Positions 2,143 through 40,800 are shown, counted from the stretch's first letter. The stretch is DNA of 41,050 nucleotides from a bacterium (GCA_021791515.1 JAJYWK010000008.1:1-41050), one strand, 5' to 3'. A program made the numbers and translations. Notes: generated by a model from the letters alone, not told the origin.

Positions 2143-2760
2143 ATGTCCCTGCCAACCCTTACGACATCCAAGATGCCTAACGAAACCGAACAGCAGTATT
2201 CTGCTTGGCTTTTGTATTGCGAAGCAGGAAGCATTGATAAGCTCATTAGGCAATGGAACGCCCTCAACCAAAACCCAACCAAAACCCAACCAGAATTTGA
2301 GCCGTTTCTTCATAAACTAGCCGAACTTCCTAATCGCTGGTCAATCGTACAATGGTCAAAAAAATATCGCTGGGTCCAGCGCACCGATTTAAAATTGACT
2401 GAAGATGTTGAGGCTATCCGGGAAAAGATAAAGAAAATTACATCGGCCAAAAAACATAAAATAGCAGAAAACTTTGAACGAATCATAAACAGAAGGCTTA
2501 AACAGTTGCGCGATGGTGAAATAGTAACAGGTAATGACCTAAAACAGGCATGGGAGATGTTACGCACCGAACTTGGCGAGACCATCGGCAAACATGAACT
2601 CGATATCCGGGAAGAAGATCAAAAACCGCCGACCGAAGAAGAAATGGCCGGAATTGGAGACATCAGTCAAGCATTCAAGGCATTTTATGAACAACAATGG
2701 AAACGACCCGGAAAAGAAACTGGTCACCTATTGGGTAACAAAAAACAAGATAAAAAATGA
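2143..2760 (+). CDS. terS: Terminase small subunit (putative)
   Basis: ETEQQYSAWLLY..WSKKYRWVQR HTH-like N-terminus; lies directly before and overlaps terL. Confidence 0.65.
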   Translation: MSLPTLTTSKMPNETEQQYSAWLLYCEAGSIDKLIRQWNALNQNPTKTQPEFEPFLHKLAELPNRWSIVQWSKKYRWVQRTDLKLTEDVEAIREKIKKITSAKKHKIAENFERIINRRLKQLRDGEIVTGNDLKQAWEMLRTELGETIGKHELDIREEDQKPPTEEEMAGIGDISQAFKAFYEQQWKRPGKETGHLLGNKKQDKK

Positions 2761-4234
2761 GAGCGGCGAATTGATAGAATTCGGCGACCACCGTTTCCTT
2801 TGGGAAATTTATGACGACCAAAACCCGGTGCTCGTACTGCGCAAAGGGTCGCAAATCGGCGCCAGCACAATGGAAGTCCTGAAAACTTTTCACGCAGCCC
2901 GCTTCTGGGGAATTAACCAGATTTATACCTTACCGACCGTGGATGACGTAGCCGAGTTCGTAAAAAGCAAAGTTAACCGCATCCTGAAAGTTAATCCCTG
3001 CATCAGGCAAGGCGTGAGTTCAAAGGACGTAGATTCCGTTGAGCAAAAACAAATTGGCAAAGCCTTCCTGTTTTTCAAAGGTACCTACACGGAAAAGGAA
3101 GCGATAATGCTGACTTCCGACCGCAACATCCATGACGAGCTGGACAAATCCAAGCCGGAAGTTATTCGGGATTACATGAGCCGCATCGGCTTCTCCAAAA
3201 TACGCAGCCAGCATTACTTCTCCACCCCGACAATCCCAGATGTAGGCGTAGATAAACTATTCGCACAATCAGACCAAAAATACTGGCGCTTTAACTGTCC
3301 GCATTGCAGATACCGCCAGCACATGGAATGGGATAAAAATCTCGACCGGGAACGAAAAATATATGTCTGCCAGAAATGCCGCAAGGAAATTACATCAAGA
3401 CAGGTTTGCGACCTGGGAGAATGGGAAGCAAAATTCCCAAGCGAATCAATAAGCGGTTACTGGATAAACCAGATGATGTGCCCGTGGAGAACTGCGGCCG
3501 ACTTAATCAAGGAAGAGTCCCTGGCAGAAGACACCCAGTATTTTTATAACTTCGTCCTGGGCCTGCCTTACCTCTCAGCCGACCTCCGCATTCCGGCCAG
3601 CCTGTTCCTGAAAAATCTTACTGAAATCAACGCAGCATCCGAAGGAGACAACGTTATGGGAGCGGACACCGGCAACGAAAACCACGTGGTGATAGGAAAC
3701 AAGAAAGGTATATTCTGGATGGGTAAACTTAAAGACCGGCCCAACCGGACCCGCTGGCAACAGATGGCGGAACTCATCCAATTTTACGACATCAGGACTT
3801 GCGTGGTGGATGCCATGCCCTGGACCGAAGAAGCTTTGCTTCTTGCCAAAAAATTCCCTTACCGGGTCTTTGTAAATTTTTATAAGGAAGATCCGAAGAT
3901 GCTGGAAGTCGTCCGCTGGAACGATGATAAAGAAGGCGAAGAAAAAGAATTTGAAGAAGAGGTCAAAGTGCTGACTTCCCGAAACAGAATTATTGACGAC
4001 ACCATATCCTCCTTAAGGCGCGGGGAAATAAAATTCGACATAGAAAAAGACTACCCCGCTTTCCGCTTGCTCATTGATCACGCCCAGACAATGTACTCGC
4101 GCACAGTAACCGACAAACTTGGACAGGAAAAGCGCGAATGGGAATCCACCACCGGCGAAGACCACCTGTGGCACGCATTAATCTATTGGCACATTGCATT
4201 AAAAAAGCGAAATAAATATGAACCCAACCGTTAA
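2687..4234 (+). CDS. terL: Terminase large subunit, lambda gpA-like
   Basis: RKGSQIGAS (gpA-type Walker A), IHDELD (Walker B), FSTPT, CPHC..CQKC zinc finger, MGADTG nuclease Asp, DHLWHA. ATG 2687 preferred over the ORF-track start at 2573. Confidence 0.88.
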   Translation: MNNNGNDPEKKLVTYWVTKNKIKNESGELIEFGDHRFLWEIYDDQNPVLVLRKGSQIGASTMEVLKTFHAARFWGINQIYTLPTVDDVAEFVKSKVNRILKVNPCIRQGVSSKDVDSVEQKQIGKAFLFFKGTYTEKEAIMLTSDRNIHDELDKSKPEVIRDYMSRIGFSKIRSQHYFSTPTIPDVGVDKLFAQSDQKYWRFNCPHCRYRQHMEWDKNLDRERKIYVCQKCRKEITSRQVCDLGEWEAKFPSESISGYWINQMMCPWRTAADLIKEESLAEDTQYFYNFVLGLPYLSADLRIPASLFLKNLTEINAASEGDNVMGADTGNENHVVIGNKKGIFWMGKLKDRPNRTRWQQMAELIQFYDIRTCVVDAMPWTEEALLLAKKFPYRVFVNFYKEDPKMLEVVRWNDDKEGEEKEFEEEVKVLTSRNRIIDDTISSLRRGEIKFDIEKDYPAFRLLIDHAQTMYSRTVTDKLGQEKREWESTTGEDHLWHALIYWHIALKKRNKYEPNR

Positions 4235-18244: not shown

Positions 18245-19426
18245 ATGCCTTCAGCAAATGGAATTAGAGATGCGGCAAGCCTGGGAGTTACGCGCAAGTA
18301 CGACGTAGCCGACGTAATATCGCTGCTTGATGCCGAGCGCTACCCCCTCCTGGCGATTTTAACCAATGCCGGCAAAGATCCGGCCACCAAACAGGGCAAG
18401 GCCCTAAAGAAAAAAGAAGTGACTGACCCGGAATTCAAATGGTTTGAGGACAAGTTCGGAGCGCGCGAGGACATAGTAGCGGCCAACCAGGCCGGCGCGA
18501 CTTCCCTGCAAGTCACCAACGGCGGCTACTTCAGCATCGGCGACGTGCTGCTTTGCGTCAAAACCGCCCAAGCGACCAACAACCCTATAGGCGAAGTCAT
18601 GCTGGTTACCAACATTAACGTCAACGTCCTGACTATCCAGCGCCAAATTGGCGACGGCACCTCGGGCGGCGGCCTGCTCCAGCAGAACGACGTGATTTGG
18701 ATTATCGGCAACGCCAACGAGGAAGGCGCGAGCGTCCGCGACATCAAAGCTACGGCCGTGGCCGAAGTTATAAACTTCTGCCAGATTTTCCGCACTCCGA
18801 TTGGCCTGACCGAAACGGCCAGAAACACCAAAGGATGGGTAAAGGAAAGCGACTTCGACTACCAGACCAGAAAGAAAGCCATTGAACACCTGGTGGACGT
18901 AGAACGCGCGTTCATGTTCGGCAAGAAAGAAATACTGACTTCAGGACTGACCCACCCCAAGCGTTTTACCGGCGGGATTTTCCCGCGCATTTCCCAGGTA
19001 GTCAGCAATGTTGCCACGAGAGCCGATTTCAACAACTTCCTCCAGGTACTGTTCGCGCACGGCAATTCTGAAAAGTATTTAATGGCCTCGCCATATGCGG
19101 TCAGCAAGATAAATGAATTCGCGATGGACAAACTGCAAGTCTTGCAGGGCGAAAACACTTTCGGCCTGACCGTGATCAAATACCTGTCCCCTTACGGCAC
19201 CCTGAACATCATCAAGCACGATTTGATCACCGGCGACTTGTACGGCAAGAGCGCGGCCGGAATGGATTTGGAGTGCCTGACTTACTGCTATCTGACAAAC
19301 CGCGACACCAAGCTCCTGACCAACCGGCAAAACCCGGGCGAAGATGCCCGCGTGGACGAATACCTTACCGAGTGCGGCCTGCAATTCGAGCAGCCCGAGC
19401 GCCATGCGGTAGTCAAGTTTTCCTGA
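18245..19426 (+). CDS. Major capsid protein (SU10-MCP/DUF5309-like)
   Basis: EFKWFED, GNANEEG, NFCQIFR, HLVDVERAFMFG, RFTGG, YLSPYGTLNII, LTECGLQ. Confidence 0.88.
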   Translation: MPSANGIRDAASLGVTRKYDVADVISLLDAERYPLLAILTNAGKDPATKQGKALKKKEVTDPEFKWFEDKFGAREDIVAANQAGATSLQVTNGGYFSIGDVLLCVKTAQATNNPIGEVMLVTNINVNVLTIQRQIGDGTSGGGLLQQNDVIWIIGNANEEGASVRDIKATAVAEVINFCQIFRTPIGLTETARNTKGWVKESDFDYQTRKKAIEHLVDVERAFMFGKKEILTSGLTHPKRFTGGIFPRISQVVSNVATRADFNNFLQVLFAHGNSEKYLMASPYAVSKINEFAMDKLQVLQGENTFGLTVIKYLSPYGTLNIIKHDLITGDLYGKSAAGMDLECLTYCYLTNRDTKLLTNRQNPGEDARVDEYLTECGLQFEQPERHAVVKFS

Positions 19427-20917: not shown

Positions 20918-22558
20918 ATGAACTACATCTCGGAAATTCATACTGCGATTAGCGAAACTGGCGACGATGGCAGAGAGCAGGACAATACGACCTGGAATTC
21001 CAAAGGCAACGCCGGAAACGTGATCACCGTTGGCAACTTAAGCGGCTCGATTTATTCGGCGGGGCTAAGGTTCAGGAATGTTCCAATTCCCAAAGACGCA
21101 AAAATAGTTTTGGCCCGCCTAAGGATCCGCCCCGCTGTAACCGACTCAGCCGATCCGGACATAAAGCTGGTCATTAAGGGAATCAAAGAACCCGACACCA
21201 GACCTTTCACTCAAGCCTCAAGACCGAGCCAGCGGGCCAAGACCGTAAACGTTACTGCCTGGCACATTATAAAAAAATGGGAAGTCCACGAATGGGCGCA
21301 AACGCCGAACATCGCTCTAATTATAGAGGAGATGGTCGCGCAGGACGGCTGGAAAGCAGGCAACTCATTAGGTTTTGAGATTAAGGATAATGGGTCCGCT
21401 TCCGGACAGGCGGAATCGTTATGGGATAAAAGCAAAGGCGACGGCTACCAGGCTGAACTGGACGTATGGTACACAAACAAAGCTGTGGCGATCGGCACCC
21501 TTGCCGGAACCGACCGCGACGGCGTGGAAATTAACAAAGGCATATGGCAATCAAACCCCGCGGGAAACGTGATCGCTTTGGGCAACGATGGCGCATCAAT
21601 AAACGAAGGCGGGTTTATATTCAGCGCCTTAAACATCCCCCGCTACGCAAGCATATTAGGAGCCTGGCTTCTGCTTACCGAAGCCGACCAGAATAACCGG
21701 TTTCCTAATTTGCTCATAAAAGGCTTCGCCGAAGACGATGCTACCCCCTTTGCCTCGGACGGATCAAACCGCCCATCAACGCGTTCAAAAACAAACGCCC
21801 AAATTGAATGGACGATTGGCCATACCGAAGACGGCGTATTCGTGGGCGAGCATTGGTCGGCCAACAGCGTCTATGAATCACCGGACATAAAAGAAATCAT
21901 TCAGGAAATTATTGACCGGGAGGGCTGGACAACATCAAGTAAATTGGGACTGGTTCTGGAAAATTTATCCTCATGGTCGGGCCAGTATAAGCTCCCCTGG
22001 GATTGGATAAAAAATAACGGCGAATTCGCGGCCAAGCTCGTTGTGGCTTGGGACTACATACGGACGGTTGATTCCTCCCAAAAGGACGTGCCCAAATACG
22101 AAAAGGGCAATTATCCGGAATATATAATAGTCCACCACTCGGCGACTCCGCGGGACGGTACCCGTTTTGCCACCATTAAAAATAACCACATAGGCATCGG
22201 CTGGGGCGATATAGCCTACCACCACTGGATAGCGGGCGCTATGGACGGCGATGGAACGCATATGCCGGGCAGGCCGGAAAATAAAATCGGCGCACACACG
22301 GACACCCAAAAAATGAATTATCGTTCCATCGGCATTGCGGTATGCGGCGACTTCCATCCGGCAAGCGGCAACGAACAACCCACGCCCGAGCAACTGGCGA
22401 CCCTGCAAACGCTTCTTGATACGGTCAGGAAAGCAAGAGGTATTCCGAAAGAGCGCGTACTCGGCCACCGGGAAACGCCGGACACGACCAACTGTCCCGG
22501 CGACAACCTGCTTTCTTATATCCAGCAATACCGTGCCACGGGAAAACTTCAACCTTGA
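20918..22558 (+). CDS. Virion protein with two tandem beta-sandwich domains and a C-terminal N-acetylmuramoyl-L-alanine amidase (Amidase_2)
   Basis: Duplicated GLRFxNVxIP..TPNI..EEMV..GW domain; YIIVHHSA, GWGDIAYH, GAH, SIGIAVCG, GHRE, TNCPG. Confidence 0.8.
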   Translation: MNYISEIHTAISETGDDGREQDNTTWNSKGNAGNVITVGNLSGSIYSAGLRFRNVPIPKDAKIVLARLRIRPAVTDSADPDIKLVIKGIKEPDTRPFTQASRPSQRAKTVNVTAWHIIKKWEVHEWAQTPNIALIIEEMVAQDGWKAGNSLGFEIKDNGSASGQAESLWDKSKGDGYQAELDVWYTNKAVAIGTLAGTDRDGVEINKGIWQSNPAGNVIALGNDGASINEGGFIFSALNIPRYASILGAWLLLTEADQNNRFPNLLIKGFAEDDATPFASDGSNRPSTRSKTNAQIEWTIGHTEDGVFVGEHWSANSVYESPDIKEIIQEIIDREGWTTSSKLGLVLENLSSWSGQYKLPWDWIKNNGEFAAKLVVAWDYIRTVDSSQKDVPKYEKGNYPEYIIVHHSATPRDGTRFATIKNNHIGIGWGDIAYHHWIAGAMDGDGTHMPGRPENKIGAHTDTQKMNYRSIGIAVCGDFHPASGNEQPTPEQLATLQTLLDTVRKARGIPKERVLGHRETPDTTNCPGDNLLSYIQQYRATGKLQP

Positions 22559-22562
22559 AACT

Positions 22563-23207
22563 ATGCAACTACAGGAATTCTTACAGGATTTAAACGCCCG
22601 CATGTCGGCTGCCAAAACCACCGGCTTGTGGAGCGAGGCGGATAAAACCAGATGGATCAACAAAGCCGTAGTCCGCGTCTGCAATTTTGCCAAATGGACG
22701 TTCCTCGGACACCACTCCAGCCAGCTTACAGAAAAAGACAAGGAAGCTTATTTTCTACCCTTTGACTACAGGCCGGGAGGAATGATGTTTATAAAAGTCG
22801 GCGGCACGGAATATGGCAAGGTCGGCGTGGAAAATTACCAAAGCGGCAACCACATACTGGATAACGTATTCACCATAATCGGCGACGAGTACCTGCTTGA
22901 CCCGGCTCCCCAGGAGGACGGAAAAATCATTGACCTCTACTACCGCCGCAGGCCGGTGCCTCTAGTAAACCCTACTGACGAACCGATAACGCCGGAAGAA
23001 ATGGACGAGCCTGTAGTAAAAATCGCTCTGGGCGTCTGCCTGAAAAAAGAACCGAACAAAAGCAATGACGGCGACAAGGAAATAATTGAAGCCACCGCCA
23101 TGCTACAGCAAATAAAAGACAGGCAGGACGAAGAAATCGGCGAAGCGGGCTTTACGGGGCAGGCAAACAGTACGCGGTTCATTTATCGAAACAGCAACGA
23201 GCAATAG
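22563..23207 (+). CDS. Head-tail adaptor (putative)
   Basis: TRWINKAVVRVC..W.FL..YFLPFDY..LDPAP..YYRRRP; ATG 22563 follows the previous stop. Confidence 0.65.
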   Translation: MQLQEFLQDLNARMSAAKTTGLWSEADKTRWINKAVVRVCNFAKWTFLGHHSSQLTEKDKEAYFLPFDYRPGGMMFIKVGGTEYGKVGVENYQSGNHILDNVFTIIGDEYLLDPAPQEDGKIIDLYYRRRPVPLVNPTDEPITPEEMDEPVVKIALGVCLKKEPNKSNDGDKEIIEATAMLQQIKDRQDEEIGEAGFTGQANSTRFIYRNSNEQ

Positions 23208-28429: not shown

Positions 28430-31400
28430 ATGGGCAATTTTTGGAAAAAAATTACAGCGCCTTTCAAAAAGGCAGGCAATGCGGTTAAAAAAACCGTTGG
28501 CGACTTTTTTGCGCCTGTCGCCGGCCAAGTCCGCGTGCGAGACTTCGCCCGCGAAGTGCCGGGAGCGGCAGAAACTGTCGGCAAGAAAGTTTTAGAATTC
28601 GGCAAGGACATTCTCCGTGCGGGTCCTCGCGCTGCGGCATCGGCAACGCTTTCGGTACAAGGCCGTAAGGAAGCCGTGCCGGAAACTCCTATGGAAAAAT
28701 TCCTTTGGGGAGATAAACCAATCAAGGACATACGCGGCACAGGCGAGGAAACTATAAAAGATTTTGGGGGCGGACAGCAGGCTCAAAAAAAGTATGGCCT
28801 GCCATTGGGGGTTGCTTTGACGGCGCTCGATATTATTCCGGTAGTGCCGGAAGAAAAAGCCGGTAAGCAGGTGGTGGAAGAACTTGCTAAAAAATACGGA
28901 GACGACATTGCGCTGGCGATTGTAAAAAAAGGTGGGAAGAAACTGGCAGAACAGGCCTTAAAGGAAGGCGGTGAAAAGTTGGTAGAAAACGCCGGCATAA
29001 AACTTTTGAAATCCGAGCCTGTTATGGAAACTGCAGCCAAGGATATAAAAGATTTAGCGCCTGCCATTGCGGAAGAGGCAGGCAAAATGCAAATCACAGG
29101 TTTGGACCAAGCTGCGGAACAACTCGATAAAACCGGCTCGGCCATTATTGCTGAAGATAAATCCAAACGACTGCGGCTCGTGGTAAAAGATGAGGGTGAT
29201 TTTATCAAGGTCGGGATGGACTCGGGAACAGGTAAGCTGTTACCGACCGATGTTAAACTTCCCGAAAAAAACTTTAAGACAAAACAAGAAGCTTTCGATT
29301 TTATTAAATCGCTGGCCAACCCTGCACAGGATAAAGAGGCGGCTGATACTTTATACCACGGCACTTCAGCTCCGGACTTTAATAAATTCGGTACTAACCT
29401 GGTATACCTTGCCCAGAATGCGGACGAAGCCAAGGCGTTTGCCGAAAATCCGATAATGGGTGGCGGACGCGGATCAGGCATTGCAAGAATTTTGGATGTT
29501 AAAGCTCCGAAAGGAAAAATTAAGGACATCGATGAAGCAGTACAGGCAGCAATAAATGACGGAGAGGATCTTGATGCAGTGATTGCAAAGCAGGCGGCTG
29601 ACGCAAAAAAAGCCGGATATAATTATCTTTCGTTTAACCACCCCAGTGCCGTCGGCGACGGAGATTTTAAAGCAATCGTTTCCATTAATCCCGGCGAACT
29701 TTCAATAGCAAGAGTCGAAAAACTTCCCCCAAACCTCACAACTAAAGCGGAGGAAGCCCTAAATGCCGTTAATGAAAACCGCAATCTGGCGGCAGAGGCG
29801 GGAGATGAAACTGCTCCGGAAGCATTGAGGGCCGACCAAATGAAACCCTCTCCTCCAGGGCAGCCCCTTGCCCCTGCCGAAACCCCGCTGGCCAGCGCGC
29901 CGGCATCCACTCCGGCAAGCGCGCTTGATGCCATAGATAATATGGTCGGTAAAACCAGCACAACGCAAAGTATTAAAGACTGGTTTAAGGGACTGCCACA
30001 GAAATTTACCCAGGCATTCTCCGACCGTTTTGCCGGGATGAAAACTTTCGAGGATAACCTGAGCAAAATGGCGGGCAAGGCCATAGACATTGAATCCAGC
30101 CCGTACGTGGGAGCCAGAATGTATGCGGGCAGGACGGGAATTATAGAGTCAGGCCTTGAGGACTTGCAAAAAATACTCAGCCCGATCAGATCCGAAAGGC
30201 CGGATTTTACCAGATTTATCCTTGCCAAACGTGCGGCGGAACGCGCTGAGCGCGGCTTCAGCAATCCGGCCAGCGTAACCGGACAGGATGCGTTAAAGGC
30301 CCTGGAAGAATTGAAAAATAAGGTCGGCGAAAAAACTTATCAGCTGTTTGAAAAAGCCGAAAGCTCCATGCAGGACTGGGCTGACAGAACCATCCTGAAG
30401 CCGGCCGCGGACGCTGGCATCATTGCCAAAAACACTTACGACTCCATTTTAAACAAGAATAAACACTGGGTTCCGTTCCAGGTGCTGGATTATCTGCCTG
30501 ACCAAAAGCAGGCCGACATGATGAAAACCGGCAATGAAATATTTTCTGTCAGCAAACAGGGAATCATCAAAGGGCTGGAGAGCACCGAAAAAACCATCCG
30601 TGATCCGTTTGAAGCCCTTATAGACAAAGTCAGCAGCGCGGTCAGCCTGATTAAGCGGAACGAGGTGGCGGACAAATTGATAAAACTGCGTGACGCACTG
30701 CCGGAAGGCAAAGACCTTATCCAGCCGCTTGAAAAAACAGCGACCGCTCCCAAAGGCTGGGGTTCCATAAGCGTATTTATAGACGGCAAAAACACCAAAT
30801 GGGCGGTGCCGGAAGAACTGTCTATGGCCATGCACCAGATGAACAACGCCGATGCCGGTATACTGGGGAATTTTCTCAGGTTCACTTCATCCGCTTTCAG
30901 AAAAGGGGCAACCAACCTTTACATTCCATTTTCGCTTTCCAACGCTTTCCGCGACGCGCAGATGGCGGTCATGACTTCCAAGTATGGCTTTAACGCGGCT
31001 AACTGGGTAAAAGGATTTTACGAAGGACTAAAAGGATCGTTTGGCTGGAATTCCAAACTGCTGGATGAATTCAACAAGAGCGGCGGCGGATTCGGCGGCT
31101 TCCTGCAAAGCGCCCGCGACATTGGCGGGATAAAAAATAAATTGTTTGAGCCAAGCTGGTGGAGAAAGACGAAAGCGGTGATTAATCCATTTAATCTCGT
31201 AAGCAATTTTGCCGAAGCCACGGAACTCGCACCGAGGCTTGGCGTGTTTAACAAAGCCTTAAAAAAAGGTGCGTCTACTCTGGAGGCCGCGTACGAGGCC
31301 AGAAATTCTACCATAGATTTTGCCAAAGCCGGACAGGAAATGAGGATCATTAACATGTGGATTCCGTTCGTCAACGCGCGCTGGCAGGCTTTGTTGAATA

Positions 31401-32443
31401 CGGCCCGGGTATTTAAAGACCGGCCAATCCGTTCGGCCGCCAAGGCGAGCGCCCTTATAGTCATCCCCGGAGTAACCACGTATCTTTGGAACACTATTAA
31501 TTATCCCGACCTTTACGATGACATCCCCCAATGGATCAAGGATACCTATTTCCCGATTATTGTTGGCGAAGAAAAAGACAGCAACGGCAACAGAACCCCC
31601 AAAACAGTCATGATCCCCAAAGGCGACGTAGGCCAGATCTTTTACAACCCTCTTGAATATACGATGGAATACATCCGGCGCGGAGAGCCTTCAAACTTTA
31701 CCAGGCTTGCATTGGAATGGATGAGCCAGCTGGCTCCAATGCCATTTACGAGGGACGGCAAAATATCTACCACGCAAATACTTTCCAGCACGCTGCCTCC
31801 CCTGATTAAGACCCCCATAGAGATTGCCACAAATAAATCGTTCTTTACGGACAGTCCGATTGTACCCGGCAGTCTGGAAAACGTTAATCCTACGGAACAA
31901 TACAATGAGAAAACTCCCGGCATTGCTGTAACTGCCGGACGCGCGCTCGGCCTGTCGCCGATGAAACTGGCTTACGGAGTTGAAGGCCTATTGGGAGGAT
32001 TCGGGCGGGAAATTGTTGACCCTACAAAGATTTTGGAATCTTCAATGAATAGGTTCTACCGCTCAACCGGTGGCGCAAAGACTGAAGAAGCCTGGAATAT
32101 AAGGGACGAGGCCGTAACCGGCTACAACACCGCCCGGCAACAGGCCAAAAGAGCCATCCAGGCCAATGACGTAAACGCGGCTTTAAAAATTATTGACAGC
32201 TGGAACGTGGCGGTCGAAAAAATGCTTCCGGATGTCCTGCCGTACCTGGCGCAGGACGATCCAGAAGAGGCAAATAAAATTCGCAATTCGGTTACGTTCA
32301 GCCCCCAGGATATCTCCAAACTCCAAAAGTCCGTCTATAACGACGCAATGGGAAAATCACAGCGGCTTGGCACGAAACCCCAGCTAAACACAACCGATGA
32401 AAGCTCCAGTTTAAAAAAGATGCGGGAATCACTTAAGCGGTAA
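28430..32443 (+). CDS. Large polyvalent ejection protein: ART-PolyVal-like domain plus LPD38
   Basis: LYHGTSAPDFNKF..VYLAQNADEAKAFA; TIDFAKAG..WIPFVNARWQ; YDDIPQWIKD..IPKG..PPLIKTPIEIATNKSFFTDSPIVP. Confidence 0.8.
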   Translation: MGNFWKKITAPFKKAGNAVKKTVGDFFAPVAGQVRVRDFAREVPGAAETVGKKVLEFGKDILRAGPRAAASATLSVQGRKEAVPETPMEKFLWGDKPIKDIRGTGEETIKDFGGGQQAQKKYGLPLGVALTALDIIPVVPEEKAGKQVVEELAKKYGDDIALAIVKKGGKKLAEQALKEGGEKLVENAGIKLLKSEPVMETAAKDIKDLAPAIAEEAGKMQITGLDQAAEQLDKTGSAIIAEDKSKRLRLVVKDEGDFIKVGMDSGTGKLLPTDVKLPEKNFKTKQEAFDFIKSLANPAQDKEAADTLYHGTSAPDFNKFGTNLVYLAQNADEAKAFAENPIMGGGRGSGIARILDVKAPKGKIKDIDEAVQAAINDGEDLDAVIAKQAADAKKAGYNYLSFNHPSAVGDGDFKAIVSINPGELSIARVEKLPPNLTTKAEEALNAVNENRNLAAEAGDETAPEALRADQMKPSPPGQPLAPAETPLASAPASTPASALDAIDNMVGKTSTTQSIKDWFKGLPQKFTQAFSDRFAGMKTFEDNLSKMAGKAIDIESSPYVGARMYAGRTGIIESGLEDLQKILSPIRSERPDFTRFILAKRAAERAERGFSNPASVTGQDALKALEELKNKVGEKTYQLFEKAESSMQDWADRTILKPAADAGIIAKNTYDSILNKNKHWVPFQVLDYLPDQKQADMMKTGNEIFSVSKQGIIKGLESTEKTIRDPFEALIDKVSSAVSLIKRNEVADKLIKLRDALPEGKDLIQPLEKTATAPKGWGSISVFIDGKNTKWAVPEELSMAMHQMNNADAGILGNFLRFTSSAFRKGATNLYIPFSLSNAFRDAQMAVMTSKYGFNAANWVKGFYEGLKGSFGWNSKLLDEFNKSGGGFGGFLQSARDIGGIKNKLFEPSWWRKTKAVINPFNLVSNFAEATELAPRLGVFNKALKKGASTLEAAYEARNSTIDFAKAGQEMRIINMWIPFVNARWQALLNTARVFKDRPIRSAAKASALIVIPGVTTYLWNTINYPDLYDDIPQWIKDTYFPIIVGEEKDSNGNRTPKTVMIPKGDVGQIFYNPLEYTMEYIRRGEPSNFTRLALEWMSQLAPMPFTRDGKISTTQILSSTLPPLIKTPIEIATNKSFFTDSPIVPGSLENVNPTEQYNEKTPGIAVTAGRALGLSPMKLAYGVEGLLGGFGREIVDPTKILESSMNRFYRSTGGAKTEEAWNIRDEAVTGYNTARQQAKRAIQANDVNAALKIIDSWNVAVEKMLPDVLPYLAQDDPEEANKIRNSVTFSPQDISKLQKSVYNDAMGKSQRLGTKPQLNTTDESSSLKKMRESLKR

Positions 32444-35033: not shown

Positions 35034-36674
35034 ATGACTGACGTATTAACAGTCGCCCAACGATCATATAATATGTCTAAAATCCGGTCTACCGAAACCG
35101 GGCCGGAAATTCTGCTTCGGAACCTGCTTATTTCAAGAGGTCTGTCCGATTTTGAAACTCAACCGAAAACGATTTTTGGTAAACCGGATTTTTATTTCTA
35201 TAACCGGAAATCAGCTATTTTTGTTGACGGCTGTTTTTGGCACGGTTGCAAAACCTGCTTTCATGCACCGCAGACAAATAAAAAATTTTGGAGTTCAAAA
35301 ATAAAATCAAACATTATACGGGATAATAATGTTAATAAAACTTTGGCAAATGGCGGAATAGAAGTCATCAGGGTTAAGGAGCATGAACTGAAACAGAATC
35401 CGGATGATGTCGTAAAAAAAATTGAAGGCAAATTACCACCCGATAATCGTCCAAAAGTATTGGATCTGTTCGCCGGAGCGGGAGGACTTTCAGAGGGCTT
35501 TATTCAGGCTGGTTGCGAAATCGTCAGTCACATAGAAGCCGACAAAAAAGCCTGTAGCACTCTTGTAACGCGCATGGTATACCATGCGCTTAAAAAGAAA
35601 AATCGGCTTGACGATTATAAAAATTACGTTCTTGGCAAAACCACACGCGATGCGATTATTAAAAAGCACGGGCTTCAAAACGCGGAGAGTTCTGTAATAT
35701 ACGAAAAGATTGGCGAAAATAACTATCAGGATCTGATTACAAAGGTAAAAGAACGCCTGAACGGGGCAAGGCTCGACATTATCGTCGGCGGCCCTCCCTG
35801 CCAGGCCTACTCTCATATAGGCCGGGCCCGTGACGATCAGAACATGCGCCGGGATGAGCGTAACTTTCTTTACCGGTATTATGTTGAATTCCTTAAAGCC
35901 CTGCAACCAAAAGTATTTGTTTTTGAAAATGTACCCGGTCTTGAAGATGCTGGTAAAGGTAAGTACCTGCGGGATATGCGTGGCCTTATGAAGAAAGCGG
36001 GCTACACTACTGACTATAAAATTTTGAATGCCGTTAACTATGGCGTTCCCCAGAACAGAAAAAGAATTATTCTGGTAGGATGGAATAAAGATTCCGGCCT
36101 CAGTGGCTATCCTGATTTCCCGGAAGTCAAACGCGAATATCTTGTTAAAGATTTTTTTACCGGATTGCCAAATATTAAAGCGGGTAAGGACAGGCCAGCC
36201 GGAGTATTTTCCGTGCAAAATGACCTTTTGGAAAAACTTGGTATTACTAATCCGCAGGTTGGTATCCTTATGGATCATGTTTCCCGGCCTCATATAAAAA
36301 GAGATTTGGCAATTTACAGACGTGCCGTGTTGTTAAAGCAGCAAGGAAAAAATTTGAAATACAATAACCTTCCAAAATATTTAAAAACACACACCAATGA
36401 GGAAGGGTTTTTGGACAGATTTAAAGTGGTTGATGCCGATGCCCGGGGTTCTCATACTGTTGTTGCACACATAGCAAAAGACGGTCATTATTATATTCAT
36501 CCGGACATCAGGCAAAACCGGTCTTTGACTGTCAGGGAGGCTGCTAGGCTGCAAACATTCCCCGATGACTATAAATTTGAAGGGGAAATAGGCCCCCGGT
36601 TTAAACAGATCGGCAACGCCGTGCCGCCATTATTCGCAAAAATAATTGCTTCAACAATACTCCAGTATTTTTAA
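35034..36674 (+). CDS. dcm: Vsr very-short-patch endonuclease fused to DNA (cytosine-5)-methyltransferase
   Basis: QRSYNMSKIRS..PE..GKPDF..FVDGCFWHGC..FWSSKI..N..RD (Vsr), then DLFAGAGG, GGPPCQ, FENVPG, PQNRKR, TVREAARLQTFPD, GNAVPP in one frame. Confidence 0.92.
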   Translation: MTDVLTVAQRSYNMSKIRSTETGPEILLRNLLISRGLSDFETQPKTIFGKPDFYFYNRKSAIFVDGCFWHGCKTCFHAPQTNKKFWSSKIKSNIIRDNNVNKTLANGGIEVIRVKEHELKQNPDDVVKKIEGKLPPDNRPKVLDLFAGAGGLSEGFIQAGCEIVSHIEADKKACSTLVTRMVYHALKKKNRLDDYKNYVLGKTTRDAIIKKHGLQNAESSVIYEKIGENNYQDLITKVKERLNGARLDIIVGGPPCQAYSHIGRARDDQNMRRDERNFLYRYYVEFLKALQPKVFVFENVPGLEDAGKGKYLRDMRGLMKKAGYTTDYKILNAVNYGVPQNRKRIILVGWNKDSGLSGYPDFPEVKREYLVKDFFTGLPNIKAGKDRPAGVFSVQNDLLEKLGITNPQVGILMDHVSRPHIKRDLAIYRRAVLLKQQGKNLKYNNLPKYLKTHTNEEGFLDRFKVVDADARGSHTVVAHIAKDGHYYIHPDIRQNRSLTVREAARLQTFPDDYKFEGEIGPRFKQIGNAVPPLFAKIIASTILQYF

Positions 36675-36681
36675 TAACCAT

Positions 36682-38436
36682 ATGCGCAATCCTCAGGATC
36701 AAAAAAATTTACAGGAAACCAGCATAGAGCCGCTACGTTTTGACGTCAGCGGTAACTTAATCAGAAAATTTGGCCGCGAGTCTATCTCCAATAAAAATGT
36801 AGCCATACTGGAGCTTATCAAAAATTCTTACGATGCTGGAGCGGCAAAGATGGAGATAGATTTTTCTTCTGTCAACACAAAAGACGCTTTAATTTCTGTA
36901 TCTGACAATGGGGACGGAATGGATTATCAGGATCTGAAAAATAAATGGATGCGCATTGCAAGTCAGTTTAAATCGAAAAAACTTAAAAATGGCGACAGAA
37001 CTTTTATCGGGGAAAAAGGCATTGGGAGGCTCTCGGCCGAAAGTCTGGGTAAAATAGCAACTCTATTTTCTTTCCCGAAAGGAAAGGATACGGGATATAA
37101 GGTCATTTTTGACTGGAATAAATACCAGGATGAGAACGTGCTGGTCAATGATGTTGATAATCCAACTTCACAAATAAAAAAGAAAAAATCCGATCACGGA
37201 TTAAGGCTGGAAATTAAAGACCTTAATCATGACTGGAATATGCAGGAAGCTCAAATCGAACTTCTGGCGGATGTTGGTATTCTTAATCCACCCAATAAAC
37301 CAGTCAGGGATTTTAAAGTATCGGCTAAATTCACGCCTTCTCTGATGGCCGCCCCGAAAATAAAAAAGGAGTTTCTAGGAAAGGCCGTATACAGCCTTAA
37401 AACCAGACTTACTGGAGGCAGTCTGATACGTTATGAATTTTCTTCAATTAAAGGAAAAAAGAAAGAAGGGAACCGTACAACAGATCGTAAACTTAAATGC
37501 GGGGATGCGGTTTTTGAACTTTATTTCTATTATAAGTCCCCAAAGTATTTTGAGCAGGCTGTCGGGAAAAAAATCAGTGCGATTGATTCAAAAGAAATTT
37601 CAAAAACGCTTGAACATTTTAGCGGCATCAAACTCTACAGAGATAATTTTAGGGTCAAACCGTATGGCGACCCCAAAAGTGACTGGATCGGCTTGGACAT
37701 TGCGGCCCACAATAACAGTATGTATCCGAGAAATGACGCTATTTTTGGAATGGTTCACATAAGCAAGTCAAAAAATCCGGCGATTGTTGATACCACCACA
37801 AGGGAAGGAGTTATATTCACTGACGAATTTCAGGACCTGATTGCATTTGTCCAGACTTCTATTTTTGGAATATTTGCGGACTTGCGGAGCGAATTTGAGT
37901 CGCATAAAACCAAAGCCAGAAAAAAGAAAAACGGTGCAAAAAACAAGACCCCGATTCACGTGGTAGTTCCAGTGCCTACAGCAAGCCCCCAGCCTCCCGA
38001 CACACTGGTTGAAATTGGCGGTAAGTATCCAGAAAACTTTTATAATCAGCTTCAGGATGAAATAAATATTTGTTTTGAACACAACCATCCAAACGCGGCT
38101 TTTTTCCTCTGTCGGAAGATGATAGAAAACCTTGTGTTTAATATTCTTGAAAAGAAATTTTCCACCCATGTGGATCTGTGGTATGACCAAAAAAGAAAAA
38201 TACGCCACAAGTTTAGTGTTTTAATCCAGAATCTCTATGCGGAGAGGACTAATTTTGGTAAGCCAAACATTAAAACCTATATAGAAAAGTTTAACAATGA
38301 GGTCGGACCGTTCAGGAAAGAGGCTAACACCAAGGCCCATTATGTATTTGAATATCTGGCCGACAAAAAAGAACTTGGCAAATTTAAAATCAAGGACTTG
38401 GTGCAGCTACTGGCAAAAATTTATGACAACATTTAA
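36682..38436 (+). CDS. GHKL (MORC/HATPase_c_3-like) ATPase with C-terminal DUF4145/HEPN-like domain
   Basis: ELIKNSYDAGA, DNGDGM, GEKGIGRL, GIKLYRDNFRVKPYG..DWIGLD, TTREG; C-terminal NAAFFLCRKMIE..FRKEANTKAH. Confidence 0.8.
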   Translation: MRNPQDQKNLQETSIEPLRFDVSGNLIRKFGRESISNKNVAILELIKNSYDAGAAKMEIDFSSVNTKDALISVSDNGDGMDYQDLKNKWMRIASQFKSKKLKNGDRTFIGEKGIGRLSAESLGKIATLFSFPKGKDTGYKVIFDWNKYQDENVLVNDVDNPTSQIKKKKSDHGLRLEIKDLNHDWNMQEAQIELLADVGILNPPNKPVRDFKVSAKFTPSLMAAPKIKKEFLGKAVYSLKTRLTGGSLIRYEFSSIKGKKKEGNRTTDRKLKCGDAVFELYFYYKSPKYFEQAVGKKISAIDSKEISKTLEHFSGIKLYRDNFRVKPYGDPKSDWIGLDIAAHNNSMYPRNDAIFGMVHISKSKNPAIVDTTTREGVIFTDEFQDLIAFVQTSIFGIFADLRSEFESHKTKARKKKNGAKNKTPIHVVVPVPTASPQPPDTLVEIGGKYPENFYNQLQDEINICFEHNHPNAAFFLCRKMIENLVFNILEKKFSTHVDLWYDQKRKIRHKFSVLIQNLYAERTNFGKPNIKTYIEKFNNEVGPFRKEANTKAHYVFEYLADKKELGKFKIKDLVQLLAKIYDNI

Positions 38437-39533: not shown

Positions 39534-39610
39534 AAACCAGCCTTTCTGTATGTATTTTACACGATTGGATTTTTTCCCGCCACAGAGTATAATTCAAACA
39601 AGGCTTGAGC

Positions 39611-39641
39611 AAAGCCGTCATTAAAACTGGCGGCTTTTATT
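39611..39641 (+). terminator. Intrinsic terminator-like hairpin
   Basis: aaagccgtca-ttaaaac-tggcggcttt-tatt. Confidence 0.55.
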
Positions 39642-39676
39642 TATGATGGTTTTTTGCTAAAATAAAGGTACAATTT

Positions 39677-39833
39677 ACGCCTAAACTCGCGGGCAACCAC
39701 GGGCATGGCAATAGCTACTCCGGTAGCAAACCAAGAAAGGTAATAAAACCCTCGTCAGGGTTCCTTTCTTGGTCGTGCGGGGAAACTCGCGCGTTTGGCT
39801 CGAAAGGGCCAAGCTCCTGGCGGGGGCCTTTTT
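39677..39833 (+). ncRNA. Candidate structured ncRNA or leader (six helices, GNRA/UNCG loops)
   Basis: Back-to-back hairpins with GCAA, UCCG, GAAA and GAAA loops; G-U pairs favour the + strand; terminal hairpin plus U5. Confidence 0.6.
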
Positions 39834-39868
39834 GCGTCCTGCCACAAAAACCAATTAATTTTTATTTA

Positions 39869-40024
39869 ATGACAAAGTTTAAGGTAGATATTTGGTTTAA
39901 CCAAAAACCGGAAAAATTACACTTGGGATCGGTTGTTGTGGAAGCAGAGACCGAAGAAAAAGCTTACCAAATCGCCTGCAACAACACCGAACTTTGGGTT
40001 ATTGGGGAAATTGAAGATACTTAA
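39869..40024 (+). CDS. Small hypothetical protein (51 aa, absent from the ORF track)
   Basis: MTKFKVDIWFNQKPEKLHLGSVVVEAETEEKAYQIACNNTELWVIGEIEDT; VxAxxEExA pattern of small mobile-element proteins. Confidence 0.55.
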   Translation: MTKFKVDIWFNQKPEKLHLGSVVVEAETEEKAYQIACNNTELWVIGEIEDT

Positions 40025-40176
40025 ATACCAAATTTCCAAAACTCATGTCTGCAAACACAGTCGATTTTAATTAATTATGATGTCGTTTGTATGGTTTTGT
40101 CATCCAATTTATAGTACTAATACTACGCGCAACAACGTCTTGTTATAATGACAAAAGATAATTAGCCTTAGTTACT

Positions 40177-40800
40177 ATGAATAAAAATAACACTCTAATC
40201 TTGATAGGGGGCATAGTAATCGGTGTTTTGATTACCGCCGTTATCACAAGCAATGCCGTTAACAACCAAAGTTACGGCATGATGCGCATGATGGGTATAA
40301 GGCAACAGACATCCATGATGGGCAGTAATATTGACCAGCATTTTATAGAGCAGATGATCCTTCACCATGATGATGCCATCACCATGGCTAACATCGCATT
40401 GCAAAAAGCCGAGCATCCTGAAACTAAACAACTTGCCCAAAACATAATTCAAGCCCAGACTTCGGAAATAAACCAAATGCGCCAATGGTATAAAAGCTGG
40501 TACGGGCAAGACGTTCCGGATACCTTTGCAAGCATGGGGCACGGAATGGGTTCTGGTACTATGCACATGGGCATGATGGGTAACACTACTGACACGGCAA
40601 GTCTGGAATCAGCCAAACCCTTCGAAAAGGCTTTTATCGAGGAAATGATCCCGCACCACCAGATGGCAGTCATGATGGCGCAAATGCTTAAGAACTCAAC
40701 CCAGCGTCCGGAAATGAGGAATCTCGCCGACAACATTATCAACACCCAAACCAAAGAAATAGACCAGATGAGCAATTGGTATAGCCAGTGGTATCAATAA
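40177..40800 (+). CDS. DUF305 (CopM-like, ferritin-fold) exported protein
   Basis: Two DxxFIExMIxHHxxAxxMA repeats; Met/His-rich linkers. Confidence 0.9.
   Translation: MNKNNTLILIGGIVIGVLITAVITSNAVNNQSYGMMRMMGIRQQTSMMGSNIDQHFIEQMILHHDDAITMANIALQKAEHPETKQLAQNIIQAQTSEINQMRQWYKSWYGQDVPDTFASMGHGMGSGTMHMGMMGNTTDTASLESAKPFEKAFIEEMIPHHQMAVMMAQMLKNSTQRPEMRNLADNIINTQTKEIDQMSNWYSQWYQ

Follow-up and report, generated by a model that had tools for sequence, protein, structure and literature searches.

Several classes of structured RNA offer points of comparison for the locus described here. In transcriptional riboswitches of the ZTP, fluoride and preQ1 types, the pseudoknot strand overlaps the terminator, and the pseudoknot protects against the terminator; the c-di-GMP-I (GEMM-I) riboswitch has a tetraloop-receptor feature; and the HK022 put RNAs are antiterminator RNAs that suppress downstream terminators. 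The element under study is a LOOT RNA (Rfam family RF03000), which occupies positions 39678-39813 of the plus strand in a bacterial DNA stretch of 41,050 nucleotides (nt) (GCA_021791515.1 JAJYWK010000008.1:1-41050; the whole stretch is called the window) and precedes an open reading frame (ORF) of 51 amino acids (aa). Rfam 14 adopted LOOT, a 'metagenomic-based RNA', from the Weinberg/Breaker ZWD alignments (PMC7779021), and its structure was refined in Rfam 15 with the gain of two covarying pairs (PMC11701678). Rivas lists it with about 43 base pairs, six helices and 28 cross-covariations (PMC7657543), and the six helices counted there are the ones seen here. The main text of Weinberg 2017 (PMC5737381) contains no description of a LOOT RNA ('LOOT' is there solely the name of a cited author, and 'tetraloop' is absent), and its supplement may differ. 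No functional study of LOOT was found in the literature searched, in which the RNA is mentioned only in database and method papers.

The search of the window with cmscan against Rfam 15 at gathering thresholds gave RF03000 as the sole match in the whole 41 kb. The match is not truncated, spans model positions 1-121 of 121, and scores 56.0 bits against a gathering score of 46.4, with an E-value of 4.9e-08. A permissive rescan of 39560-39900 recovered LOOT again at full length, plus two sub-threshold chance matches to small nucleolar RNAs. The locus is a member of this catalogued family, with one extra hairpin. It shares with the family the conserved CCUAAA/CAUGG block, the GNRA loops and the occurrence in small genomes of candidate phyla of the Patescibacteria/Microgenomates type. 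It differs from the Rfam model in the extra hairpin with a UCCG loop at 39714-39727, a lineage-specific insertion found also in copy L004 on contig C22 of the source genome and in copy L049 of genome G018. A sequence-only reading of the stretch had described the hairpins, the GAAA loops, the CCUAAA/CAUGG internal loop, the TGcTAAAAT box and the 51-aa ORF, all of which are present on direct inspection, and had held that the RNA matches no known family. The observation was correct; the claim of novelty for the locus is refuted by the full-length, above-threshold match, a known family being the very outcome that the reading had named against itself.

LOOT is a repeated element in this group of bacteria. 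The source genome (G000, 1.17 Mb, Patescibacteria-type) holds four copies, and the RNA is present in 27 of 41 related genomes, with a maximum of 10 copies in one genome, and in 30 of 151 genomes of a phylum sample; it is absent from all 14 well-known control genomes. Genome G017, of the same genus, carries 10 copies on contigs C1 and C4, four of them within about 51 kb (C1:511230-562273). The comparisons that follow use a family sample of 52 above-threshold copies from the 41 related genomes, oriented and taken with their flanks, and an out-of-sample set, for which 20 other genomes of the 151-genome phylum sample supplied 20 copies from other families.

The Rfam model ends at 39813 and, as the only description of the family with which the locus was compared at this level, lacks the long-range helix, the U run and the downstream elements that follow in the window copy. 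The features of this copy are:

39655-39663, plus strand: extended -10 element TGCTAAAAT (TGcTAAAAT, with the hexamer TAAAAT at 39658-39663), read from the sequence; a putative promoter.
39670-39677, plus strand: conserved leader ACAATTTA, recognized from the flanks of other copies and likely to be the 5' end of the transcript, which would start 7-8 nt past the -10 box.
39678-39813, plus strand: LOOT core, model positions 1-121, from the cmscan match to RF03000.
39679-39709, plus strand: P1 (H1), with the outer stem GCC/GGC and the loop CCUAAA (39680-39685) opposite CAUGG (39704-39708), from the sequence, the Rfam alignment and the fold.
Within 39679-39709, plus strand: inner stem of P1, seven positions with one C.A mismatch, and its GCAA loop at 39693-39696, from the sequence.
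39714-39727, plus strand: H2, GCUAC-UCCG-GUAGC, an insertion relative to the Rfam model, from the sequence and the Rfam alignment.
39730-39773, plus strand: P3 (H3), a long hairpin with a basal stem (39730-39740 / 39763-39773) and an apical part (39747-39762, loop CGUC), from the alignment and the fold (-21.1 kcal/mol alone).
39749-39759, plus strand: 5' strand of the long-range helix, CCCTCGTCAGG, comprising the apical loop and 3' arm of P3, from pairing and covariation.
39774-39793, plus strand: P4 (H4), eight pairs with a GAAA loop at 39782-39785, from the Rfam alignment and the fold.
39795-39812, plus strand: P5 (H5), seven pairs with a GAAA loop at 39802-39805, from the Rfam alignment and the fold.
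39813-39827, plus strand: H6, a local G/C hairpin (six pairs, four of them G-C, loop of three) followed by C and then five U, from the terminator scan.
39816-39826, plus strand: 3' strand of the long-range helix, CCTGGCGGGGG, G-rich and beyond the Rfam model, which pairs with 39749-39759 or, alternatively, is part of the 39813-39827 hairpin.
39829-39833, plus strand: U run TTTTT, from the terminator scan; a putative point of intrinsic termination.
39834-39845, plus strand: downstream complement GCGTCCTGCCAC of the element 39816-39828 (hairpin 39816-39846, -14.4 kcal/mol).
39869-40024, plus strand: 51-aa ORF including its stop codon, from ORF reading; it begins 36 nt past the U run.

The minimum free energy (MFE) of 39670-39845 is -82.9 kcal/mol, compared with -57.2 +/- 4.1 kcal/mol for 200 dinucleotide shuffles (z -6.3), none of which folded as well, so the hairpin-rich stretch is a real folded RNA, beyond chance. 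The earlier picture of a compact non-coding RNA, in which GNRA hairpins are combined with a receptor-like internal loop and which has a -10 box of its own and ends in a U run, is supported; its length, proposed as about 155 nt, is corrected to about 164 nt for an RNA that would begin near 39670 and extend to the U run. The exact pair CCUAAA/CAUGG occurs in 36 of 50 aligned LOOT copies and CCUAAA in 43 of 50, according to an alignment-based tally. No other part of the family is as well conserved as this block, and the invariant positions are those of the receptor block and the GNRA loops. A variant LOOT contig in other metagenomes has 23 substituted positions and three indels over 39634-39838; the inner stem of P1 is rewritten with its pairing kept, and the basal stem of P3 shows two double compensatory changes (39735 with 39768, and 39736 with 39767). 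The segment 39744-39838 is otherwise unchanged in this contig, and the flanks diverge on both sides of the RNA.

Beyond the Rfam core, a long-range helix is conserved and covaries across the family. In the 52-copy set the 11-16 nt right after the core are G-rich, and across copies this flank can base-pair with the apical loop and 3' arm of P3, many of the pairs being G.U. In the window copy, 39749-39759 and 39816-39826 form 11 pairs, two of them G.U; the isolated duplex of the apical region and the flank has -22.9 kcal/mol, and the pairing of flank to LOOT -23.9 kcal/mol. Flanks pair with their own LOOT at -23.9 kcal/mol and with the LOOTs of other copies at -16.4 kcal/mol, a difference reached in 0 of 2000 permutations. 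The long-range duplex has a median of -23.7 kcal/mol, 67 of 68 copies lie at -15 kcal/mol or below, and z is below -2 against shuffled flanks in 45 of 50 copies.

The MAFFT alignment of 50 copies (A1), from which L038 and L047 were left out for having no rule-defined U run, contained the helix in two registers and was divided into A2 (28 copies) and A3 (22 copies). Because this division was made by helix register, it flatters the percentages of pairing, which are 90.4% for the 12 pairs of A2 (77.4% in shuffles, 0/500) and 92.9% for the 15 pairs of A3 (87.5% in shuffles, 0/500). Both sides had changed at eight pairs in A2 (2/500) and at five pairs in A3 (29/500), and registers slid in A2 were only 36-54% paired. 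For P4, taken as a benchmark helix, pairing was 95.4% in A2 and 91.2% in A3, with both sides changed at 8/8 pairs in A2. Three results are independent of the choice of register: RNAalifold on A2 yields the long-range helix unprompted; in the out-of-sample set the rule detects the U run in 18 of the 20 copies and z is below -2 in 17, with new compensatory versions of the helix; and the long-range pairing contains 103 G.U cells against 16 A.C cells. The excess of G.U over A.C indicates selection on the LOOT RNA strand and not on DNA.

The same nucleotides have a local alternative. The competing apical hairpin is 76.8% paired in A2 (4/500) and 89.3% in A3 (45/500), and the nucleotides of the 5' strand of the helix also form a local hairpin in 68 of 68 copies, enclosed by at least six basal pairs in 53 of 68. 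The long-range helix therefore competes with the tip of P3 and is knotted with its basal stem.

The element is flanked in one orientation by signals of transcription. In 50 of the 52 copies a TAnnnT hexamer precedes the LOOT start by 8-30 nt, in many of them with TGn in front of it, and flank listings show an ACAAyUnAAU-like leader between the -10 box and P1 in most copies. The sigma-70 scan, which requires a -35 hexamer, listed no promoter at LOOT; the TGcTAAAAT box is supported because it is conserved in other LOOT copies. At the other end, a G/C-rich element followed by a U-rich run is present by rule in 50 of 52 copies, as in the 18 of 20 out-of-sample copies cited above. In the window, the stable G/C stem and U run of an intrinsic terminator are found both in the local form (39813-39827 plus five U) and in the long-range stem of -22.9 kcal/mol, and termination is predicted. 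Local hairpins before the U run are weak across copies, with a median of -4.5 kcal/mol and 22 of 68 copies at -6 kcal/mol or below. A second terminator-like hairpin lies at 39611-39637 (+), with 10 pairs followed by TATTTAT, upstream of the LOOT -10 box and between the divergent bactofilin gene and LOOT; at this site, variant contigs of other metagenomes have a GGCGGC-T7 element.

LOOT is oriented with the gene that follows it. In 49 of the 52 copies, an ATG ORF of at least 30 aa on the same strand starts 20-160 nt past the core, the exceptions being L008 and L041, at contig ends, and L046; a same-strand downstream ATG ORF is also found in 20 of 20 out-of-sample copies. The longest ORF in the interval +60 to +360 is on the same strand in 46 copies, on the opposite strand in four and absent in two, while upstream of LOOT the corresponding numbers are 22, 27 and three. 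The genes so placed are diverse. BLAST groups the 49 downstream proteins into 37 clusters, of which 29 have a single member; their Pfam families are unrelated to one another, and 32 of the 49 have no Pfam family at all. The products include DNA methylases, HU, bacterial PH-domain, DUF2726, DUF4352, GtrA, PMT and zinc-ribbon membrane proteins. These 49 proteins do not belong to one pathway or function, and such diversity makes a classical metabolite riboswitch an unlikely fit.

No ribozyme or riboswitch family was found at E <= 1 in the rescan of 39560-39900, which led to the rejection of membership in a ribozyme family; c-di-GMP-I membership was rejected likewise, there being no match to that family model at E <= 1 in the same segment and the layout of the helices being different. 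What stands of the earlier suggestion of a ribozyme or riboswitch is a two-state anatomy that resembles that of a riboswitch.

This anatomy appears in the calculated energies of the window copy. For a transcript that has reached the U run, little separates the two folds: -73.6 kcal/mol for the native one with its local hairpin, and -70.8 kcal/mol for one in which the long-range helix is enforced. Once the transcript extends to the ATG, the native fold together with the 39816-39846 hairpin has an advantage of 10 kcal/mol. Of 65 copies, 39 have a complement of the G-rich element in the interval from U run to ATG, which is 18-60 nt long in most copies. A start region that repeats the 5' strand of the P3 basal stem, and is therefore complementary to its 3' strand, occurs in 12 of 69 copies (z below -2.5), and between L040/L043 and L051 the changes in the start region match those in P3. 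In L040, L043, L051, L062, L065, L029 and L070, the 10-12 nt before or across the ATG repeat the P3 basal 5' strand and vary in step with P3, which suggests that a freed P3 3' strand masks the start codon in these copies.

LOOT is also linked to mobile DNA. Of 10 LOOT loci sampled from 10 genomes, seven have a gene for a Resolvase-domain recombinase within +/-6 kb, and the other three have phage or element markers; control regions 60 kb away on the same contigs had such a recombinase in 0 of 10. The source-genome copies on contigs C15 and C17 adjoin large serine recombinases, among methylases and defence-type genes.

Two of the loci have surroundings of interest in themselves. Around L082 (G000:C15:1-19000) there are a serine recombinase, an EcoRI-type methylase, GmrSD/HNH, an SF1 helicase, a ParB-methylase, a LexA-like repressor, a ThsB-type TIR protein and HEPN, and the region looks like a defence-rich integrated element. 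Within 6 kb of L089 (G020:C1:41714-53833) are a reverse transcriptase with a bAvd-like accessory gene, of the diversity-generating retroelement type, and a PcfJ-like protein.

We propose, at about an even chance of being right, that LOOT is a cis-acting leader or attenuator of mobile-element cargo genes. Transcription would start about 7 nt past the TGcTAAAAT box, near 39670, and the RNA would then fold in either of two ways. In its native LOOT fold P3 would stay intact, the G-rich tail would be free or captured by 39834-45, and the polymerase would read into the ORF. In the alternative, the tail would invade the tip of P3, and the resulting helix with the U run would end the transcript and release an RNA of ~160 nt. 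LOOT would thus act in cis on whichever cargo gene follows, as a rule within mobile DNA that has integrated. A protein, an ion, temperature or tertiary folding by way of the GAAA loops and the receptor could tip the balance, and in some copies the choice of fold may also set access to the start codon. A more far-reaching version, possible in our opinion although we would rather bet against it, is that LOOT is not a small RNA (sRNA) but a portable two-state module of Patescibacteria integrative elements and prophages, in which a promoter-proximal tetraloop-receptor scaffold and a knotted, split terminator, built from the tip of P3 and the 3' tail, let one fold gate both transcription and translation of the cargo in answer to a signal from the cell or from the state of the element, the opening of P3 freeing a strand that masks the start codon in some copies.

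Several points weigh against the attenuator. The start of the transcript, its end and any read-through into the ORF are all inferred; no RNA run was listed for 39560-40160 and no contig of one metatranscriptome (X21) aligned with the stretch, two results that carry no information on expression. Related sequences can beat shuffles without any structure, a consideration that joins the division by register mentioned above. Nested MFE folds up to the U run contain long-range pairing in 20 of 50 copies, mixed with local pairing, but the knot is beyond nested folding and these folds are not taken as evidence. In the window copy, a local hairpin of -7.3 kcal/mol (39813-39827) stands directly before the U run, and an ordinary hairpin of this kind could terminate transcription without the long-range helix, which weakens the switch logic for this copy. 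No conserved ligand pocket is evident in the aligned LOOT copies. The downstream complement is restricted to the 39 of 65 copies, a Shine-Dalgarno-like motif between U run and ATG is found in only 28 of 65, and the match of start region to P3 is limited to the 12 of 69 copies, the window copy not among them. Upstream of more distant homologues of the 51-aa protein, Rfam gave 0 matches at E <= 0.1 at six loci (one of them cut by a contig end), so the 51-aa gene does not need LOOT. Finally, the Rfam type of RF03000 is 'Gene; sRNA'.

The latter assignment agrees with an alternative in which LOOT is a stand-alone, trans-acting sRNA; the long-range helix would be its mature fold and terminator, and the downstream gene would be reached by incidental read-through or be unrelated. 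We regard this as unlikely, while giving it serious weight. The -10 box and the helix with U run directly past the core (50/52 and 18/20) lead one to expect a discrete RNA of ~160 nt, the downstream genes have no common function, and the distant 51-aa homologues do without LOOT. The 3' part of LOOT also behaves as a repeat in assembly: 39769-39838, comprising P4, P5, the G-rich tail and the U run, forms a short contig with a summed depth of ~200 against 6.5-8 in the flanks (one metagenome; runs X3/X4/X8), a depth which indicates that many loci or strains have it in common. However, an sRNA of this kind does not account for downstream genes on the same strand in 46 of 52 copies when upstream genes are so in only 22, nor for ORF starts 20-160 nt away (49/52 and 20/20), which leave little room for another promoter. 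The complement of the 3' strand of the terminator downstream of it (39/65) and the repetition of a P3 strand at the start codon (12/69) speak for action in cis, and no conserved single-stranded 'seed' is visible, the conserved bases being structural.

A 5' module that does not switch at all, either a stable leader that shields the mRNA of acquired genes or an insulator from outside transcription, would fit the very stable fold (z -6.3), the constant promoter-proximal position, the unrelated cargo genes that follow in mobile DNA and the lack of an evident ligand pocket. We find it improbable, because a U run after a covarying helix and alternative partners for the same strand are not needed for mere stability. 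A site acting at the level of DNA, for instance a recombination or attachment site of the neighbouring serine recombinases, might explain the Resolvase-domain genes within 6 kb in seven of 10 loci and the contigs of other metagenomes, which break at 39634 and 39838. It is scarcely credible and was rejected: G.U cells outnumber A.C cells, the latter being what the other strand would need, the GNRA loops are strand-specific, the helices keep pairing through double changes, and the -10 box and U run flank the element in one orientation.

An attenuator of the proposed type would have partial parallels among the RNAs named at the outset. As in the ZTP, fluoride and preQ1-type riboswitches, a 3' segment of LOOT has a choice between the loop of a domain that has already folded and another partner, and this choice would be linked to an intrinsic terminator; unlike in those, the helix that resembles a pseudoknot provides the stem ahead of the U run, a conserved pocket is not seen, the genes downstream of different copies are unrelated to one another, and 39560-39900 gives no match to such families at E <= 1. 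With c-di-GMP-I, LOOT has in common a GNRA tetraloop with a receptor-like internal loop, and several copies per genome placed before diverse, often envelope-related genes. Phage 'moron' cassettes and HK022 put leaders are alike by description, with their own promoter, a structured RNA right behind it, a single accessory gene and a location in prophage or integrative DNA; put RNAs suppress terminators, whereas LOOT appears to build one.

The 51-aa ORF that follows LOOT in the window encodes a real protein. Comparison of the window gene with that of C22 gave synonymous differences (Sd) of 20/27.3, non-synonymous differences (Nd) of 25/110.7 and a ratio of non-synonymous to synonymous rates (dN/dS) of about 0.1; synonymous sites are saturated and non-synonymous change is low, which points to purifying selection. 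Homologues follow LOOT in L004 and L049. The family occurs in seven of the 41 genomes, all of one genus, and just four clusters of it were found among 5.8 billion proteins. The protein has no Pfam family and no PHROG match. Its AlphaFold model, a two-stranded beta-hairpin and a helix, has a mean predicted local distance difference test (pLDDT) score of 93.9 and no fold match in the PDB at E <= 0.001 (0/442 rows). An antisense ORF of 57 aa at 39681-39854 was rejected as a gene, since it overlaps the RNA and is unsupported.

The window is the entire contig C11 of the source genome, in which phage and mobile genes dominate up to ~38.4 kb (1-38436). They include two amidases, C5 and N6/N4 methylases, and the following genes:

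866-2137: N6/N4 methylase.
2573-4231: terminase gpA ATPase.
18245-19423: SU10 major capsid protein.
22335-23204: SU10 adaptor.
28430-32440: LPD38 polyvalent protein.
35034-36671: Vsr-Dcm.
36646-38433: HATPase_c_3 protein.

No tRNA was found in the window and no integrase was seen on the contig, which could be a prophage or else phage DNA assigned to the genome in binning. Past the phage genes, a 217-aa gene and the bactofilin gene on the minus strand are followed by LOOT, the small ORF and the DUF305 gene (40177-40800). LOOT is not a fixed neighbour of DUF305, with 0 Rfam matches in the 20 best DUF305 loci of other genomes, and the order of small ORF and DUF305 is kept only in G013. There, on contig C38, only the C-terminal 54 residues of DUF305 matched (94% identity), ~2.6 kb past the small-ORF homologue. 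The closest relatives of the DUF305 protein are in records mostly titled Patescibacteria group or Microgenomates-type candidate phyla; near-equal matches include many third-party annotation (TPA) records titled 'uncultured Gammaproteobacteria', which are probably automatic mislabels.

Filing the locus under LOOT removes a false claim of novelty. LOOT is an orphan structured RNA of the candidate phyla radiation, and the covarying terminator-stem helix, the same-strand ORF and the link to recombinases move it from an 'sRNA of unknown function' to a testable hypothesis, in which it would serve as a general-purpose cis-regulatory cassette for genes that move horizontally, in bacteria with few known regulators. 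If this is true, its pseudoknot-like terminator would represent an unusual coupling of RNA tertiary folding to transcription.

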